From positions 44,062 to 108,061 of the forward strand of contig CAYRUR010000003.1 of NCBI GenBank assembly GCA_964427615.1: 64,000 bases of DNA. Reading direction: 5' to 3'. Below the pieces are notes generated by a model. It was given only the letters and a program-made list of their open reading frames with translations, was not told the origin of the DNA and ran no database searches. Of the stretch, positions 42,084-63,088 are shown piece after piece; the stretch's first letter is position 1; the number at the start of each line of letters is the position of its first letter. The DNA is from an uncultured Gammaproteobacteria bacterium (GTDB lineage Bacteria > Patescibacteriota > Microgenomatia > Levybacterales > GWA1-39-11). Both the position numbers and the translations under genes were made by a program.

Positions 42084-42138
42084 AAAATAGGGTAGATCAA
42101 GCTAAACTGGATTTTTACGGACTCAAAATGTAATTGTG

Positions 42139-42211
42139 GGTGGCTGACGGGATTCGAACCCGCGGCCGCCGGTACCACAAACCGGTGCTCTACCGCTGAG
42201 CTACAGCCACC
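42139..42211 (-). tRNA. tRNA-His (anticodon GTG) with encoded G-1
   Basis: Reverse complement folds as cloverleaf: G-1, acceptor GTGGCTG/CAGCCAC, anticodon loop uuGUGgu, T-arm GCGGG-ttcgaat-CCCGT. Confidence 0.7.
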
Positions 42212-42264
42212 ATGCAGATCTCATGTATTATACAAAAAATGAGGGTGAATTACTACAAATGGGG

Positions 42265-42942
42265 TTAGCCAACAATTTCTCCTTCTATGTATCCTCTTTC
42301 TTTTTTATCTTTCATAGCCCTTGCATACAGTACTCCGACTACAAAGCCTGCTATATGTGCCCAGAAAGCAATTCCTCCTTCTTCTCCCATTCCCATCTGT
42401 AGTGAAAATGCACCTGAGATAAGTTGGATAAAAAACCAGTAAAAAAGATATAAAACTGCCGGAATCTCTACAATAGTAATAAAGAAAAAGATAATTAAAA
42501 GCGTCTTTATGCGCGAGTGAGGAAAAAGTATATAGTAAGCTCCCAATACTCCTGAAACAGCACCAGATGCACCCAGCATTGGAATAGGGGAGTCTGTCAT
42601 CAGAAAAAACTGGGTAAGATTACCAATAATGCCTGCAACCAGAAAGAATAATAAAAAGCGAATTTTACCAAAATAATCCTCTACATCATCTCCAAAAATC
42701 CATAAAAACCACATATTAGATATGATATGCAAAATAGAACCATGCAAAAACATGGCTGTAACAAATGGAATAAGAGATGAAAAGTCAGCAAAATTTACTT
42801 TCTGAGGGGTAAGCGCATATTGCAGCGTGAATGTCTCAGGAGACGTAATTTGAAAGTAATACAGTACTGCATTGATTATGATAAAAAAGATAGTAAGAAT
42901 GGGAAATGAACGTGATTTTACAGAATCAGAAATCGGGAACAT
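42265..42942 (-). CDS. rhomboid family intramembrane serine protease
   Basis: GASGAVSGVLGAYY (GxSG catalytic Ser) and AHIAGFVVG (catalytic His) in TM helices; 6 TM. Confidence 0.75.
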   Translation of the reverse strand: MFPISDSVKSRSFPILTIFFIIINAVLYYFQITSPETFTLQYALTPQKVNFADFSSLIPFVTAMFLHGSILHIISNMWFLWIFGDDVEDYFGKIRFLLFFLVAGIIGNLTQFFLMTDSPIPMLGASGAVSGVLGAYYILFPHSRIKTLLIIFFFITIVEIPAVLYLFYWFFIQLISGAFSLQMGMGEEGGIAFWAHIAGFVVGVLYARAMKDKKERGYIEGEIVG

Positions 42943-43101
42943 ATTTTATTTAGCAATTGTATCAGTGAAGAGAAAAATTGGCAATTTATTAGGGTAATAG
43001 ATACGTAAGAATGCGCTTTATTATTCAAACTAAACGTAAACTATAACTGGTAAAATAAGGCTTTAAATTATATCTGGCGAAGCCAGGTGCAGACTTGTAC
43101 C

Positions 43102-43177
43102 TGGCGCCCCTGGAGGGAATCGAACCCCCAACCTTTTCCTTAGAAGGGAACTGCTCTGTCCGTTGAGCTACAGAGGC
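43102..43177 (-). tRNA. tRNA-Arg (anticodon TCT), CCA encoded
   Basis: Reverse complement: acceptor GCCTCTG/CAGGGGC (one U-G), D GCTC-aacggaca-GAGC, anticodon stem TTCC/GGAA loop cTTCTaa, T-arm GGGGG-ttcgatt-CCCTC, then GCCA. Confidence 0.65.
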
Positions 43178-43214: not shown

Positions 43215-43457
43215 ATGTCAAGCTCAACGGATTATAACAATAAGCAAAACAGAAAACAACCCATAGCATGGGGAGACCTATCAAAAGAACAGCAAAACAT
43301 CATTATTGATCTTCTTTCCTTGGTTAAGATTATTAACAAATTCGCTGCTACCTCTGACTTTGCAGAGAAGTTTTCTACTCATTCACAAACAATAGAATAT
43401 CAGGCCAGAAAAAGAATAAATGCCTACGAAAAGGCTAGAAAGGAAACGATTAAATAA
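43215..43457 (+). CDS. hypothetical protein (first ORF of phage-derived region)
   Basis: 80-aa ORF. Confidence 0.3.
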   Translation: MSSSTDYNNKQNRKQPIAWGDLSKEQQNIIIDLLSLVKIINKFAATSDFAEKFSTHSQTIEYQARKRINAYEKARKETIK

Positions 43458-43458
43458 T

Positions 43459-44106
43459 ATGAAGCCTAAGTACATGAGAAGTATAGGTGGTAGTAGGGAA
43501 AGATTCGTAGAGTTTATGCTCGATACTCCATACCCATTAATCATATTCTTTTTCCTAGCTCTTATAGCTGCAGCTATCGTAAGAGGCATTACCTTACATG
43601 AAGAGGGACTAGTAAAGAGTGCAGAAGCACAAGAGTTGCTAAGTCCTATTCCAACACCAACCATAACACCAACTCCTACTGCAACGCCTACACCTACAGA
43701 AGAACCTAAGAATGAGAGGGTTCAAAAGTTGAAGAGCTTTTTGATAGAGCAAAAATCACCTCTTGCTCCTTATGCAGAACTGATTGTAGAGCAAGCAGAT
43801 AAATATGACATCTCATGGACATTAGCAACATCCATCTCTGGTAAGGAGTCATCTTTCGGTAAAGAGATTAAACCAGGATCTTACAACGCATGGGGAGTGA
43901 TGGCATGGGACGCAAACGGTAAGAGATATATTAGAAGCTTTAACTCATGGGAAGAAGGAATTATTTTTGAAACTAAGCTTATCTCTAAACATTATAGAGA
44001 GAACATGAACAAGGCTATACAAGAAAAATACTGCCCTAGCTTTGAATGCTCACCAACATGGGTACAGACCGTAACAGAATTTCAGGAGGCTATCAACAAT
44101 GAATAA
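43459..44106 (+). CDS. membrane-anchored peptidoglycan hydrolase-like protein (glucosaminidase/FlgJ-type domain) with PT-rich linker; frame opens at 43420
   Basis: TM helix, (PT)n linker, then ...DISWTLATSISGKESSFGKE...NAWGVMAWD...FNSWEEGI resembling Pfam Glucosaminidase. Confidence 0.4.
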   Translation: MKPKYMRSIGGSRERFVEFMLDTPYPLIIFFFLALIAAAIVRGITLHEEGLVKSAEAQELLSPIPTPTITPTPTATPTPTEEPKNERVQKLKSFLIEQKSPLAPYAELIVEQADKYDISWTLATSISGKESSFGKEIKPGSYNAWGVMAWDANGKRYIRSFNSWEEGIIFETKLISKHYRENMNKAIQEKYCPSFECSPTWVQTVTEFQEAINNE

Positions 44107-47214: not shown

Positions 47215-47484
47215 ATGAATAACTTGCCGCCACTCAGAGGTAAACAAAAAGTAATTTACCGTCTCATTCAAGAGGCGGGAGAAAAGGGAATTAACGCTAA
47301 TGACCTTAGACGTACTACCTATACTGTAGACGTGCCTAAAGTTGTATCAGAGTTAAACAAGAAAGGGTACAGCATTTTCTCTAAAAGAGAGAAAGACGGC
47401 ACAGCAACTTATTCACTTACCACACTTCCACAGAAGCCTAGAACGTATATTTTTGAAGGTAATAGGGCTATACCTATTTATTAA
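47215..47484 (+). CDS. hypothetical small phage protein (possible DNA-binding)
   Basis: 89-aa basic ORF. Confidence 0.3.
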   Translation: MNNLPPLRGKQKVIYRLIQEAGEKGINANDLRRTTYTVDVPKVVSELNKKGYSIFSKREKDGTATYSLTTLPQKPRTYIFEGNRAIPIY

Positions 47485-47486
47485 AT

Positions 47487-48356
47487 ATGAAATGGTTTAA
47501 ACACGAAGCAGACGCTTCACAAAATAAAAAGGTCAGAAAGTTGAAGAGAATGTACGGGGCTGAAGGCTATGCAGTATATTTTCAAATCGCTGAGTTTATA
47601 GCAGAAGACATTGAAAAAGACAATGTTAATGATTGGGGATTCTTACCTCATGAGTATGACGATATGGAATTCTTAGCAGATGAAGTAGGTATAGAAGATG
47701 TGGAGAAATTAAAAGAAATTATAGAGTTCTGCTGCAGCAATCCAGTGAATTTATTTGAGAAAAGAGAGGGAAGAATTTATTGTGAAAGAGTATTAGAACA
47801 GGCAGATGAATATACTCAGAAATTAATTAAACAAGCGAAAGGTAATTTAGGTGAAAAATCGGGAGAAAGTGAGGCTAAAGAAGAGACTGAATCAGAAGTG
47901 AATCGGGATAGTATCGGGAGTAAATCGGGAGACAATCAAGAGTCAGTCGGGCATAAGAAGAAGAAAGAGAAAGAGAATCAGAATGAGAAAAAGAAAGAGA
48001 ATGAAAAAGAAGAAAAGGATTTAAAAAAATCCATTGCTTATTTGTCTAGTTTTCCTTTAGAAGATTTTGCAGAGATTGATATTACGGAAAAACAACTGAG
48101 ATTAGAGGCTCAAAAAGCGCTCAACTGGCTCAAGTCAGAAGGCAAAAGAAAGAAAGATTATCAAGCATTTTTTGTTAATTGGATTCTAAGAAACTACAAA
48201 ATGAAGTCAGAGGTAGTACTTTTCCCTGAGCATAAAAAAGTTCCACCAGAACAGCGAGTCTCAAACGAAAAAATGCAACAGCTCAGGCAACAGTTAACAG
48301 GAATCGCAAAATCTAAGTCAGTCAATGGAGAGGAGGTGAAAAACAATGGAGGATAA
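47487..48356 (+). CDS. Lin1244/Lin1753-like (DUF4373) N-terminal domain protein, phage replication initiation/organiser-type; K/E-rich low-complexity middle
   Basis: N-terminus MKWFKHEADASQNKKVRKLKRMYGAEGYAVYFQIAEFIAE matches DUF4373. Confidence 0.55.
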   Translation: MKWFKHEADASQNKKVRKLKRMYGAEGYAVYFQIAEFIAEDIEKDNVNDWGFLPHEYDDMEFLADEVGIEDVEKLKEIIEFCCSNPVNLFEKREGRIYCERVLEQADEYTQKLIKQAKGNLGEKSGESEAKEETESEVNRDSIGSKSGDNQESVGHKKKKEKENQNEKKKENEKEEKDLKKSIAYLSSFPLEDFAEIDITEKQLRLEAQKALNWLKSEGKRKKDYQAFFVNWILRNYKMKSEVVLFPEHKKVPPEQRVSNEKMQQLRQQLTGIAKSKSVNGEEVKNNGG

Positions 48357-53144: not shown

Positions 53145-53464
53145 GTAAGATGAAAATACAAATTGATACAGACCATAAGACAATAAAAATTGAGAATGAT
53201 GTTTCTATCGAAAAACTGCTCAATACATTAAAAAAACTTTTTCCTAACAATGAGTGGAAAGAATTTACATTACAGACTAATACAGTTATCGAGCGTTTCC
53301 ATAGTCCTATCGTAGTTGAGAAGTGGAGAGAACCATATTATCCCTGGTGGAGTACTCGTTACTATTCACAAAATATGGATCATTCGCTTTCATCTAAGCT
53401 TATGGCTAAATCTGATGATAACCGTTTCTCTTTAAAGTCTGGAGTTTTTAATGTAGAGGCGTAG
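53141..53464 (+). CDS. hypothetical phage protein
   Basis: 107-aa ORF preceded by aaggaggtga RBS. Confidence 0.35.
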   Translation: MSKMKIQIDTDHKTIKIENDVSIEKLLNTLKKLFPNNEWKEFTLQTNTVIERFHSPIVVEKWREPYYPWWSTRYYSQNMDHSLSSKLMAKSDDNRFSLKSGVFNVEA

Positions 53465-54353
53465 TCTTTTGCTGGTAGGGACATTCATGCCCTTACCAAG
53501 AGAAGATTAAGATAGTTGCTCTTTGATATCTTTTTGCGAGAGTGGCGCACCAAAGATGGTGAATAAGCAGGTTGGGTGAAAACCCTTCATCAGTTTATAG
53601 ACTGAGAAACCTGACGAATGAATAGGTAGACGCTAGGACTTTGGCTGGTAACTGGAGTCTGAATTATACATAAGTGGAAGTCCTTTGGGAAATGACCGAG
53701 TATACCACGGCTAGAACCATAAAAAGGTGTAAGGTGACGGACGGCTATCCAGCTTCTGCTGGTGTGTACCGCAAATCCTTGCCTCTCGCAACAAGCTATT
53801 AAGGAAAGTTCTTTGATAATTTACTGCTGAGGAGATATCTATGGGCAGACAATTAGGGATGGACGAGTTCCACTATCGGTCAATAGTGGATTGCTTAGAC
53901 TCCATAACTACTCTTCTACGGAAAGGACCAATCCGTATCATCAAATTTCTAAAACTTGTGTCACGGAAAAATAACAGATTCTCCTCAGCAATAAGTTATT
54001 AAGGATGTTTTTAGGAAGAAATAGTTATGAAAGAATACATGTTTTTATTACATAGACAATCAAACTGCCGAATACTTAAGATTACAGAGTTTCGGTAAAT
54101 AGGTTTGATTGGACTGAAGTTGAGCTTTGGTGTTGGAGAATTGTCATAAATTTATCTGGTTCACAACACAAGATCCTGCCGCATCGAAGCTCAACTCGCT
54201 TACTTTTGTTATAATGCAAAATATGGAAGAAATTAAACAAAAACTCGAAGCATGGGTTGGGGAAATGATAAAGGATACGTTACTGAGTACAAGGTGTGGA
54301 GAGGAAAGTATTACTTAGTTAAAGAATATGACTTTTAGTAGATAAGAGATTAT
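53465..54353 (+). ncRNA. candidate large structured non-coding RNA (or ORF-less self-splicing intron): ORF-free, GC-elevated, many nested perfect helices including a GGGU-GAAA-ACCC tetraloop hairpin
   Basis: Helices read directly: 53473-53499; 53574-53585 (GAAA loop); 53745-53758; 11-bp long-range TGCTGAGGAGA/TCTCCTCAGCA 53824-53834 with 53980-53990; 7-bp CCACTAT/ATAGTGG 53870-53889; 9-bp CAATCAAAC/GTTTGATTG 54058-54111 enclosing 5-bp CCGAA/TTCGG; 10-bp AGTTGAGCTT/AAGCTCAACT 54117-54196 enclosing GTGTTG/CAACAC. Strand uncertain. Confidence 0.45.
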
Positions 54354-54743
54354 ATGCAAACAACAACTTTAGAAACATCAAAATTATTGAAAGAGGCGGG
54401 GTTTCCGCAGGAAACAGAGCATTGTTATGTAGAAAGAACTTATGAACCTGGTCTTGTGGGGAATAATCCAGATATTGAGCTTATACGTTCAGAAACCATA
54501 AATAAACATTACTATCATAAGGTGTCTGATGAAATGATTGCTTACTCACCTACCGCAGATGAAATACTAGATGAGTTGCCACATTCTATTGAGTTAGAGG
54601 GTGAAGTCTACAATCTAAGGATAAGTAAATTCATAGATGGATACGGTTTATCTTATAGTTGGCGTGACGATTGCTACAATGAATCCCTAGCCGAAGCAGC
54701 AGCAAAGATGTATTTTTACTTGAGAAAGGAAGGGATTATATGA
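54354..54743 (+). CDS. hypothetical phage protein
   Basis: 129-aa ORF. Confidence 0.35.
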   Translation: MQTTTLETSKLLKEAGFPQETEHCYVERTYEPGLVGNNPDIELIRSETINKHYYHKVSDEMIAYSPTADEILDELPHSIELEGEVYNLRISKFIDGYGLSYSWRDDCYNESLAEAAAKMYFYLRKEGII

Positions 54744-61627: not shown

Positions 61628-61693
61628 GTGCAAATAGATGATATAATAAAAACATACCAATAAAACGTTGTGGAACACATTTCATAACGTTTT

Positions 61694-63088
61694 ATGGCAT
61701 ATACCGCACAACAACTAGGATTAACAGCGCCAGCAGGAGGGTTTGAGGATGGAGGTTGGTATGGTGGACATAATTACGATGCTGCTACCCAAACCTTTGG
61801 AGAAAAAAACCAAATCTGGTCTAAATCTCTTCCTAGCTCTGGACAACAAGTATCCCAAGAAGTAAGACAGCAATCAGCAGACGCTCAAGGGGTCTCGCTA
61901 CAAGACTTTGACACCTTTCTTTTTGGGGCTAACGCTAGTAATCTGCAGGGAAACCAAAACGTTCCTTTCTCTTCAGGAGCGAATGAAGAATATCTTAAAG
62001 GGATTAGTGCTCAAATGGAGGCAGCCCGTAAAGCACTTGAGGACTCACTGAGAAAACAGAGAGAAGAAAACGATTCAAGACTTGCAGAACTAAGGAAGAA
62101 AGAGCAAGAAACACTTGGTAAAGTTGATGAACTTACTACTCCATTCCGTGAAGACCTAGAAAATACAGAGCGAGAGCGCTTACACATAAATAAGAATTTT
62201 GAAGAAAATCAAAAATTGGTTGATGAGTTAGATAAACTCTTGACCGAAGGAAATGAATATATCCGCCAACAAAAAGAAGTTACCGGACTTGCTGCAATAC
62301 GCAATCCAAGAGTACAAAAAGCAATGGAAGACGTAATAGCCCGTGTGGGTGTTATCGAAGCTGTAATTAATGCCCGAAACGGCCAAATAGCTCAGGCTGA
62401 AAATATGATTGACCGTACTGTTAATGCTATAACGCAAGACAGGATGGATAGAATCTCTTACTACGAAACTGTCTTAAACCTCAACAATCGTGATATCGTA
62501 TCGCTTGATGCAGATAATAAGAGAATTGCTGAAGAACAACTAAATATTCTCAAAGTAGATCTCTCACGTGCACAGGCAACAGTTGATTTCATAAAAGAAA
62601 AGATGGTTGACCCTCAATTTGCTTCACTAATGGGAGAAGCTGGTGTGTCCTTGAATATGAGTGTGGGTGAAATAAACTCCAGACTAACGCAAGCTCAAAT
62701 AAATCGTGAGATTAGAGAGCAGGCAAACAAAATAGCTTTGCAAGGTGGAGTTGCTGTAGCAGATCCTTCTTTGGTACCAGAAGATCAATTGGTAAGCTTC
62801 ACTGACTCACGTGGACAGGTTCACTACTATAAATTACCAGCAAGCAGTGGTGGAAGCGGTAAGGTTAGCGAGACTGACTATGTTGAAGCCTTAAAGCAAG
62901 ATGCAAGAAGTGGACTAACACTAAGTCAAATATTTGCAATTTACTCAGGGTATCTTGATCCCGACCAAATTTATCAACTATACAATGCAAGCAGTATATA
63001 TGGACCAGATAAAGGAAACGTTTCAAACCTTGCAAAGTTTGGTGTTACCCAACCTAAGTCAAGTGATTCGGACGAGGATCTTTTCTAA
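61694..63088 (+). CDS. phage protein with long central coiled-coil region and Gly-rich N-terminus
   Basis: Heptad-rich stretch ~100-330 aa; 464 aa. Confidence 0.4.
   Translation: MAYTAQQLGLTAPAGGFEDGGWYGGHNYDAATQTFGEKNQIWSKSLPSSGQQVSQEVRQQSADAQGVSLQDFDTFLFGANASNLQGNQNVPFSSGANEEYLKGISAQMEAARKALEDSLRKQREENDSRLAELRKKEQETLGKVDELTTPFREDLENTERERLHINKNFEENQKLVDELDKLLTEGNEYIRQQKEVTGLAAIRNPRVQKAMEDVIARVGVIEAVINARNGQIAQAENMIDRTVNAITQDRMDRISYYETVLNLNNRDIVSLDADNKRIAEEQLNILKVDLSRAQATVDFIKEKMVDPQFASLMGEAGVSLNMSVGEINSRLTQAQINREIREQANKIALQGGVAVADPSLVPEDQLVSFTDSRGQVHYYKLPASSGGSGKVSETDYVEALKQDARSGLTLSQIFAIYSGYLDPDQIYQLYNASSIYGPDKGNVSNLAKFGVTQPKSSDSDEDLF

Follow-up and report, generated by a model that had tools for sequence, protein, structure and literature searches.

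Introduction

tRNA mimicry is a recurring theme, known from the tRNA-like structures of plant viruses, from tmRNA, from Y RNAs and from mascRNA. In the plant mitochondrial t-elements and in mascRNA at the 3′ end of MALAT1, RNase P and RNase Z define the RNA ends; in YrlA, which adjoins rsr, the parts follow a permuted order, and the RNA ends exit through the anticodon-side stem. YrlA-type RNAs reportedly also occur in phages. Here we analysed a 64,000-nt stretch of contig CAYRUR010000003.1 (the window, i.e. the whole stretch), and in it the region 53465–54353, which lies within a prophage between an open reading frame (ORF) of 104 aa (53150–53464) and one of 129 aa (54354–54743) and is read on the + strand, as are all window features below. 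An earlier description made from the letters alone (the sequence-only reading) had proposed this region as a candidate large structured noncoding RNA (ncRNA) or self-splicing intron, possibly of a new class. By sequence comparison, the core of the region (53520–53805, domain 1) is an unusually ornate type B member of a family of tRNA-Leu-like RNAs, and the family itself is a widespread group of tRNA-Leu-derived structured RNAs of phages. While tRNA mimicry is a known kind of thing, a tRNA-Leu top-half family in DNA-phage operons appears to be uncatalogued, being absent from Rfam 15.

Results

A tRNA-Leu-like RNA family is reached through the upstream protein

A BLASTN search with the region, the route by which the sequence-only reading had hoped to find homologous phage contigs, gave no nucleotide match among INPHARED phages or PLSDB plasmids, and relatives of the core were reached instead through a homologue of the upstream protein. 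This homologue, 44% identical to the 104-aa protein, is encoded on ENA contig L019 and followed by a GC-rich, ORF-poor stretch of ∼600 nt with a tRNA-like element embedded in it. MAFFT global alignment of the region to L019 was uninformative; by k-mer anchoring, domain 1 and the L019 stretch were found to share three words in the same order, GAATAGGTAGACG, AAGGTGAC and CAAATCCTTGCCT, of which two are exact 13-mers and one is an 8-mer. Scanning for exact matches to GGTTGGGTGAAAACCCTT, to its extension into a 24-mer and to GCAAYAAGYTATTAAGGA yielded chance matches in coding DNA or nothing; these targets belong to the window-specific D-loop insert and to stem arms, which are not conserved.

The search pattern GAATAGGTAGACGN{85,115}AAGGTGAC matched 12 IMG/VR viral, 8 genome and 64 metagenome loci. 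Two of the genome matches (L032 and L033) are genuine actinobacterial tRNA-Leu genes with an identical D-arm 20-mer, GGTGGCGGAATAGGTAGACGCG, and therefore the first word is the tRNA-Leu D-arm. A complementary 7-mer pair exactly flanking UGGCG...CCUUGC was present in 63 pattern stretches (53 distinct), which come from phage and metagenome contigs and from metagenome-assembled genomes that carry the labels Succinivibrio, Aquaspirillum and Cytophagales; these 53 distinct copies are probably a small part of the true family. No Rfam family and no tRNA call by ARAGORN or RF00005 fell on any family member, and no description of the family turned up in the literature that was searched, although the candidate set of a large 2023 screen for phage structured RNAs may hold it unnamed (PMC10690425).

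All members share one order of parts, namely a 7-nt strand, UGGCG, GAAUAGGUAGACGC, 82–112 hypervariable nt, GYAAGG, UGAC, an optional hairpin, CAAAU, CCUURC and the complement of the first 7-mer. The D-arm is kept exactly as in tRNA-Leu (GGCGGAAUAGGUAGACGC), and the T-stem, both T-loop halves, the acceptor-like helix and the U8-G9 linker are retained along with it; conservation covers the elbow-forming part and the acceptor helix of a tRNA, while the anticodon end is discarded. The 82–112 nt segment has no conserved 7-nt anticodon loop and its interior otherwise follows no common architecture; one helix, placed where the variable arm would be and stopping 2 nt short of the T-stem, is more frequent in it than in shuffles (47% versus 15%). 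Two types could be distinguished. In type A the T-loop is short (UGACAAAU or UGACAGAAAUUCAAAU) and leader and trailer pair little; its copies often lie within phage tRNA arrays. Type B carries a hairpin of 26–105 nt inside the T-loop, usually UAUA-CGAG...CUCG-U, and its acceptor-like helix extends into the flanks by a median of 10 more pairs, versus 2 when flanks are swapped between members; it thus has no free tRNA ends, the acceptor helix continuing into a leader/trailer duplex. An extra insert of ∼23 nt interrupts the 3′ strand of the T-stem in two members, L070 and L098 (CAAATC, then AGGAAYCCGTCT..ACGGTACT, then TGCC), so inserts are tolerated at yet another position. The variable domain of another, L077, contains the hammerhead-like core words CUGAUGAG ... 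CGAAAC, with no Rfam hammerhead match at the gathering score.

Anatomy of the window copy

Domain 1 is closed by a 23-bp helix. Its leader strand (53520–53535) pairs with the trailer strand (53790–53805) at 14 of 16 positions, including two G-U pairs, and the acceptor-like 5′ strand GCGAGAG (53536–42) is complementary at 7/7 positions to the 3′ strand CUCUCGC (53783–89), which is followed by an A at the discriminator position (53790). The UG linker and the D-stem 5′ strand GCG (together UGGCG, 53543–47) are separated by a 72-nt D-loop insert (53548–53619; pair probabilities 0.93–0.99) from the D-loop and D-stem 3′ strand GAAUAGGUAGACGC (53620–33), which is identical to that of the genuine actinobacterial tRNA-Leu genes. 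A variable domain of 95 nt (53634–53728), with a possible helix AGGACUU/AAGUCCU (53635–41/53679–85), replaces the anticodon and variable arms. The T-arm follows, with the 5′ strand of the T-stem GUAAGG (53729–34), the first T-loop half UGAC (53735–38), a 33-nt hairpin (53739–71) with the tip CCAGC-UUCU-GCUGG, the second T-loop half CAAAU (53772–76) and the 3′ strand CCUUGC (53777–82). The D-loop insert consists of a hairpin CACCA/UGGUG (53548–61) and a three-way junction closed by CAGGUU/AACCUG (53568–613) that carries the GGGU-GAAA-ACCC and UCAGUU/GACUGA hairpins. It is unique to the window copy, with no homologue among the 53 distinct copies or their flanks, as all 62 other parsed members join UGGCG directly to GAAUAGG.

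The window copy therefore shows the 7-bp helix directly flanking UGGCG (5′) and CCUURC (3′), the GYAAGG-UGAC-hairpin-CAAAU-CCUURC T-arm (53729–82) and a leader/trailer extension of 14 further pairs, while GAAUAGGUAGACGC is not joined directly to UGGCG, 72 nt lying between them. We treat it as a D-loop-inserted variant of type B and do not exclude it from the family. A covariance model built from the alignment of type B cores (A3, see below) matched 53728–53782 locally at E = 0.0065, the best match in the whole 64-kb window. The cloverleaf-like fold of the window copy has −92.3 kcal/mol, at a cost of only 3.5 relative to the minimum free energy (MFE) fold (−95.8 kcal/mol); the MFE alternative uses GGCUGG/CCAGCU.

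Family helices covary

Covariation among homologues, the check by which the sequence-only reading would have its structure judged, was found for the core. In the gap-free alignment A3 of 40 type B cores, standard pairs occupy 89.4% of cells, versus 65.4% in shuffles and 38–45% with partners slid, and the covariation score is 0.608 versus 0.161 shuffled, a value reached by 0/500 shuffles. The acceptor-like helix is 98.9% paired, with 6/7 pairs changing on both sides. Because acceptor complementarity was part of member selection, better evidence comes from the leader/trailer and T-loop hairpin helices, on which the selection did not draw: the former is 80% paired with 10/10 pairs covarying, and the basal helix of the latter is 77.5% paired with 5/5 pairs covarying. 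G-U pairs are frequent in the family helices and folding of the core strongly favours the + strand (z −4.29 versus −1.77), which together indicate selection on a + strand RNA rather than on DNA.

These data bear on whether the core is simply a tRNA-Leu gene interrupted by an intron, or a decaying tRNA-Leu pseudogene. The perfect 7-bp acceptor, the tRNA-Leu D-arm, the T-stem and the A at position 73 of the window copy would all suit such a gene. However, ARAGORN and the Rfam tRNA model are silent here and in all members, no anticodon stem-loop (5-bp stem, 7-nt loop) is conserved, the T-loop UGAC..CAAAU is non-canonical with at least 8 nt, and the discriminator is variable and paired; the core has neither a cloverleaf by the tRNA model nor a 7-nt UUCRANY T-loop nor a free 3′ end with conserved A73 and CCA. 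A decaying pseudogene is further opposed by more than 50 distinct copies that retain all helices by compensatory change. We thus regard a tRNA-Leu gene or pseudogene as very improbable.

Members lie between genes, in tRNA arrays and beside ROOL

Nearly all distinct members (52/53) lie outside any ORF of ≥80 aa, i.e. they are intergenic, and 20 of the 30 members with two visible neighbours are co-directional with both. Most are 145–250 nt long and sit in short intergenic gaps, commonly near YopX-like and other early-region genes. In contig L063 (3812–5480, − strand), four covariance-model matches are interleaved with tRNA-Gln, tRNA-Thr and tRNA-Pro in a phage tRNA island. In two unrelated contigs the large RNA ROOL (RF03087) stands directly beside a type A element (L030 552–1337 and L043 1–709, both − strand; 290.9 and 157.6 bits in the order listed), the element being 3′ of ROOL in one contig and 5′ of it in the other. 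The remark in the sequence-only reading that ornate phage RNAs sit near tRNAs is thus pertinent to the family, which was found inside phage tRNA arrays and, in two cases, next to ROOL.

Homologues of the 104-aa protein are encoded next to the RNA and in the same direction in the window (53150–53464), L019 (802–1122) and L089 (10–282). A fixed partnership of protein and RNA was considered and rejected, as the two are not adjacent in L017, L018 and L104–L110. As a separate observation, the words GTAGAGGCG..CTTTTGCTGGTA and CTGGTAGG recur near elements (53453–53477 versus 53626–53650 in the window, 1221 and 1680 in L019, and the upstream flank in L027); they may be relics of further tRNA-like D-arms.

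The region folds as a chain of domains

The sequence-only reading had listed at least nine helices, and repeat analysis together with base-pair probabilities recovered all of them, within 1 nt of the positions it gave: UGGUAGGG/CCUUACCA (53473–80/53491–98), the GGGU-GAAA-ACCC hairpin (53574–85), the CCAGC-UUCU-GCUGG hairpin (53749–62), UGCUGAGGAGA/UCUCCUCAGCA (53825–35/53980–90) enclosing UCCACUAU/AUAGUGGA, CAAUCAAAC/GUUUGAUUG (54057–65/54103–11) enclosing GCCGAA/UUCGGU, and AGUUGAGCUU/AAGCUCAACU (54118–27/54187–96) enclosing GUGUUG/CAACAC. The comparison of real with shuffled folding energy, which it had named among its possible refutations, also came out in its favour, the whole region having a folding energy of −253.3 kcal/mol on the + strand (z = −5.57, versus −3.27 on the − strand). 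By domain (200 dinucleotide shuffles each), z on the + and − strands was −3.52 and −2.64 for 53465–53506, −4.29 and −1.77 for the core (53516–53809), −5.59 and −6.49 for 53806–54010, −4.57 and −2.35 for 54050–54115, −2.7 and −2.3 for 54113–54200, and about 0 on both for the tail (54200–54353), the last ∼150 nt of the region being unstructured. As background, 137 windows of 300 nt from the phage region gave a mean z of −0.28 (sd 1.2, minimum −3.63). Two other + strand segments also fold unusually well, 47251–47550 (z −3.59), which lies directly upstream of the replication-initiator gene, and 61651–61950 (z −3.63).

In the models, the region is a chain of separately closed + strand RNA domains and not one continuous nested fold. 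Ahead of the core, the H0 hairpin (5+8 bp, 53466–53505) begins 2 nt past the upstream stop codon (pair probability 0.86–0.89); it has no U-tract, and no homologue of it was found. Behind the core, domain 2 (53810–54005) is closed by a 29-bp helix (53810–40/53976–54005; P 0.92–0.99) that encloses ∼135 nt with three hairpins and is followed by UGUUUUUA (54006–13). Then come H3, a 20-bp hairpin (10+6+4 bp, 54057–54111; P 0.95–0.97), and H4, an imperfect hairpin with a 10-bp base and inner GUGUUG/CAACAC that was found by repeat analysis (54118–54196); H4 is weak, with z of only −2.7/−2.3 and low pair probability in the global fold. No homologue of any part outside 53520–53805 was found in more than 80 related loci, including the flanks of the 53 distinct members.

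The large structured ncRNA of the sequence-only reading is accordingly retained as a strand-specific structured RNA and not as a single RNA of ∼0.9 kb, since homologues exist for 53520–53805 only. A single large ornate RNA of a new class, comparable to GOLLD or ROOL and with the tRNA-like part as one of its domains, would fit the z of −5.57 for the whole region, the related arms of domains 1 and 2, and the L019 element, which likewise lies within ∼600 nt of GC-rich, ORF-poor sequence; GOLLD, which can contain tRNAs in a linker, offers a precedent (PMC12286853). Against this, the window and L019 conserve the tRNA-like part only, the other parts match no flank of the 53 distinct members, most members are 145–250 nt long in short intergenic gaps, and the domains close independently, all of which leaves such an RNA decidedly unlikely. 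Direct repeats make up the outer arms of domains 1 and 2 (TCTTTGATA... and ...TATTAAGGA). A duplication of whole units was rejected, as the arms align and the interiors do not.

Known classes were sought with Rfam 15, which gave nothing at the gathering score in the region and only a chance match at E ≤ 10. The covariance models of GOLLD, ROOL, HEARO, OLE, raiA and other Rfam large RNAs had no match there, nor did the Infernal scan proposed in the sequence-only reading show group I/II introns, RNase P or tmRNA; ARAGORN found no tRNA or tmRNA in the region. The same scan detects ROOL in L030 and L043, so the method works. The claim that the region fits no recognisable known class hence stands as far as Rfam is concerned, but it is not of a wholly new kind, the core being derived from tRNA-Leu. 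A self-splicing group I or group II intron had been suggested by an ORF-free, GC-rich and highly structured segment in a phage with a GNRA loop. That suggestion was abandoned, an intron here being scarcely credible: no intron family matched even at E ≤ 10, the flanking genes are complete and unrelated to each other, the core ends are joined by a 23-bp helix, which is not so in group I introns, and the core is tRNA-derived.

Domain 2 and the tail

Domain 2 consists of 31-nt inverted repeats flanking 144 bp, and both GAGGAG and the ATG at the start of a 53-aa orphan ORF (53841–54002) are sequestered in its helix. No nucleotide homologue of domain 2 and no match of it to the family model was found. 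Taken as an intrinsic terminator, it has the 29-bp stem followed by UGUUUUUA, yet it encloses 135 nt and was not listed in the terminator scan. Taken as a type I toxin–antitoxin locus, it has the sequestered Shine-Dalgarno sequence and ATG, whereas the peptide is not hydrophobic and has no homologues, and only weak antisense promoter-like sites were present. The 53-aa ORF was rejected as a conserved gene, as HMMER among 1.84e9 representatives returned only spurious repeat-protein matches.

Two further views of this part of the region were weighed, namely that domain 2, H3 and H4 form a site acting at the DNA level (recombination, inversion, packaging or replication), or that domain 2 is a small-protein cassette, i.e. 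a translationally locked, type I toxin-like gene with its Shine-Dalgarno sequence sequestered. A DNA site would explain why domain 2 folds equally on both strands (z −5.6 and −6.5), its inverted repeats around 144 bp and the position just upstream of the structural module, and the cassette would account for the GAGGAG-N6-ATG inside the helix. However, no recombinase or terminase-small-subunit signal was present among the scanned neighbours, H3 clearly favours the + strand (−4.57 versus −2.35), the window holds no second copy, and the peptide, not hydrophobic, matched only repeat proteins among those representatives. We therefore hold a DNA-level site or a cassette to be unlikely.

Downstream of H4 stands a promoter-like extended −10 element, TGTTATAAT (54207–15), which was recognised by direct reading and is omitted by the promoter scan because it has no −35. 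The tail after it may hold an ORF of 31–34 aa (ATG at 54214 or 54223, stop at 54318), with a weak match to PHROG 32862 (E = 0.14). TGTTATAAT overlaps the ATG at 54214, while the next in-frame ATG, at 54223, falls roughly where transcription would be expected to start, which makes a leaderless ORF of 31 aa possible.

The region is a module at the junction of early and structural genes

The region marks the junction of the early/replication genes and the structural genes of the prophage. The sequence-only reading was right in seeing no convincing ORF in these ∼890 bp, the longest being 63 aa (54127–54318), 53 aa (53841–54002) and 42 aa, and right also about the raised GC content, 0.44 versus ∼0.33 in the flanks, with 0.44–0.45 at 53450–53900 versus 0.29–0.37 around it. 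Stop-to-stop fragments of the region in six frames had no Pfam or PHROG match better than E = 0.08, and a hidden or frameshifted pseudogene was rejected on these empty searches. Both neighbouring genes appear intact: the upstream 104-aa ORF, whose product matches phrog_31330 in its N-terminal half, is a complete member of a small family, and the downstream gene has full-length homologues beginning at its own ATG.

The phage is rare, each flanking protein having one identical cluster and only distant relatives among 5.8 billion proteins. An identical phage is present in the samples of SRR7082966 and SRR7082976. In relatives found through the downstream gene and the portal (L001–L008; 62–71% portal identity), packed ORFs occupy this place and no homologue of the region was present; since these phage relatives lack it, the region is, by this comparison, a module acquired by this phage lineage.

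Some observations concern the prophage as a whole. In the stretches 42138–43177 and 43420–44106, genes for tRNA-His and tRNA-Arg lie immediately left of the first phage-like gene, a glucosaminidase, and this side of the prophage showed no integrase. One of two identical Logan assemblies breaks inside H4, contig L004 starting at ∼54132, and both Logan contigs stop at the same right-hand position ∼14 kb past the window; these ends could be due to coverage, or be a physical or variable end.

Discussion

The reading that we favour, as probable though far from assured, is that the core is a tRNA-like punctuation or stability module in phage polycistronic RNA and that domain 2, H3 and H4 form the transcript end. 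The element would be transcribed with its flanking genes and embedded in a longer transcript, where its conserved elbow could be read by host enzymes that recognise tRNA shape, RNase P and RNase Z being the first candidates, and the type B coaxial duplex of at least 21 bp would be a plausible RNase III substrate. The element may thereby punctuate and stabilise the polycistronic transcript, or yield a stable tRNA-like RNA, and type A copies in tRNA arrays would be released like tRNAs. We prefer this model because the conserved parts are those read by RNase P and RNase Z and because the elements lie between co-directional genes. As to the rest of the region, domain 2 with its U-tract, H3 and H4 would most likely be the structured end of an early transcript, through termination, processing or protection, and TGTTATAAT a late promoter driving the downstream genes; such a structured end before a late promoter is suggested by the location, by the U-tract that follows domain 2 and by the extended −10 further downstream. 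As position 73 varies and is base-paired, and as the elements encode no CCA, decoding or leucine charging is unlikely to be the primary role.

Several points weigh against this interpretation. The mechanism is read from shape and genomic context, and RNase P would be expected to be impeded by unbroken pairing across the acceptor end. With 21 nt fixed in the search pattern, the apparent sequence conservation of the D- and T-loops is partly built in, and more divergent members were left unsampled. Owing to its three inserts, the window copy is not aligned over its full length by the covariance model, which scores it at 15.6 bits (E = 0.079) and misaligns the 5′ half, and the parse of that half comes from direct reading, with an in-register 12-nt match of the acceptor-like 5′ strand plus UGGCG. 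For domain 2, H3 and H4 no homologues were found, which makes their role a reading of one sequence; the two strands of domain 2 fold equally well, and the terminator scan of the region found nothing.

Instead of punctuating a transcript, the core might act in trans as a tRNA mimic, either a decoy or sponge for host factors that recognise tRNA or a partner or cargo in ROOL assembly; its targets could be tRNA-targeting anti-phage nucleases, modification enzymes, the CCA-adding enzyme or leucyl-tRNA synthetase (LeuRS). The strongly kept D-loop and T-loop sequences, with the rest free to vary, speak for a mimic, as do the type A copies in tRNA arrays and those adjoining ROOL in two unrelated contigs. 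Charging by LeuRS is independent of the anticodon, and a tRNA-Leu top half would thus be chargeable in principle. However, type B members vary at the discriminator position and have it paired, no CCA is encoded, the T-loop has UGAC..CAAAU instead of UUCRANY, and type B has no free 3′ end unless processed first, which makes action as a mimic rather unlikely, if less so than a DNA-level site. A broader claim, that the elements are an undescribed and widespread class of phage RNA, built on the tRNA-Leu elbow top half with hypervariable arms and trans-acting, with the window copy, expanded in the D-loop, at the anticodon/variable position and in the T-loop, as its most elaborate known member, is put forward tentatively, at somewhat under an even chance.

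Whichever role applies, the adjacency to ROOL and to tRNA arrays gives a handle on why ornate phage RNAs cluster with tRNAs, the window copy and its family show how far the D-loop and T-loop tolerate large insertions, and annotation would gain elements that are currently invisible to tRNA finders.

Compared with bacterial class II tRNA-Leu, the family has the same 7-bp acceptor, U8-G9 linker, D-arm (identical over 20 nt), T-stem and A-rich 3′ T-loop half, in the same order of acceptor, D-arm, further arms, T-arm and acceptor. It differs in the hypervariable domain of 82–112 nt in place of the anticodon arm, in the T-loop UGAC(+hairpin)CAAAU instead of UUCRANY, in having no CCA and a variable, paired discriminator, and in escaping tRNA finders. 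Like t-elements and mascRNA, the elements are tRNA-shaped, non-decoding modules that would sit in longer transcripts, being likewise intergenic and co-directional; unlike them, they occur in phages, retain the D- and T-loop sequences much more strongly and, in type B, have the leader and trailer fully paired, and their cleavage is putative. The tRNA-like domains of YrlA and tmRNA are similarly non-coding and keep the elbow and acceptor with the anticodon arm replaced. In contrast to YrlA, the ends of the core leave via the acceptor helix, there is no Rfam match, and the Pfam scan of neighbours showed no Ro-like gene; tmRNA is set apart by its coding module and by G3-U70, and the core had no match to it by Rfam or ARAGORN.

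The phage RNase III sites (T7 R1–R5 and those of lambda) share with the region their long, near-perfect intercistronic duplexes, here of 23 bp in the core, 29 bp in domain 2 and 20 bp in H3, but they are simple hairpins without a tRNA-like cap, and RNase III cleavage here is putative. ROOL and GOLLD, finally, match the family in neither sequence nor structure, their folds of 580–800 nt standing against a conserved unit of ∼100 nt, the tRNA-derived core; what they have in common with it is that they are encoded by phages or prophages near tRNA islands, and that ROOL directly adjoins two family members.

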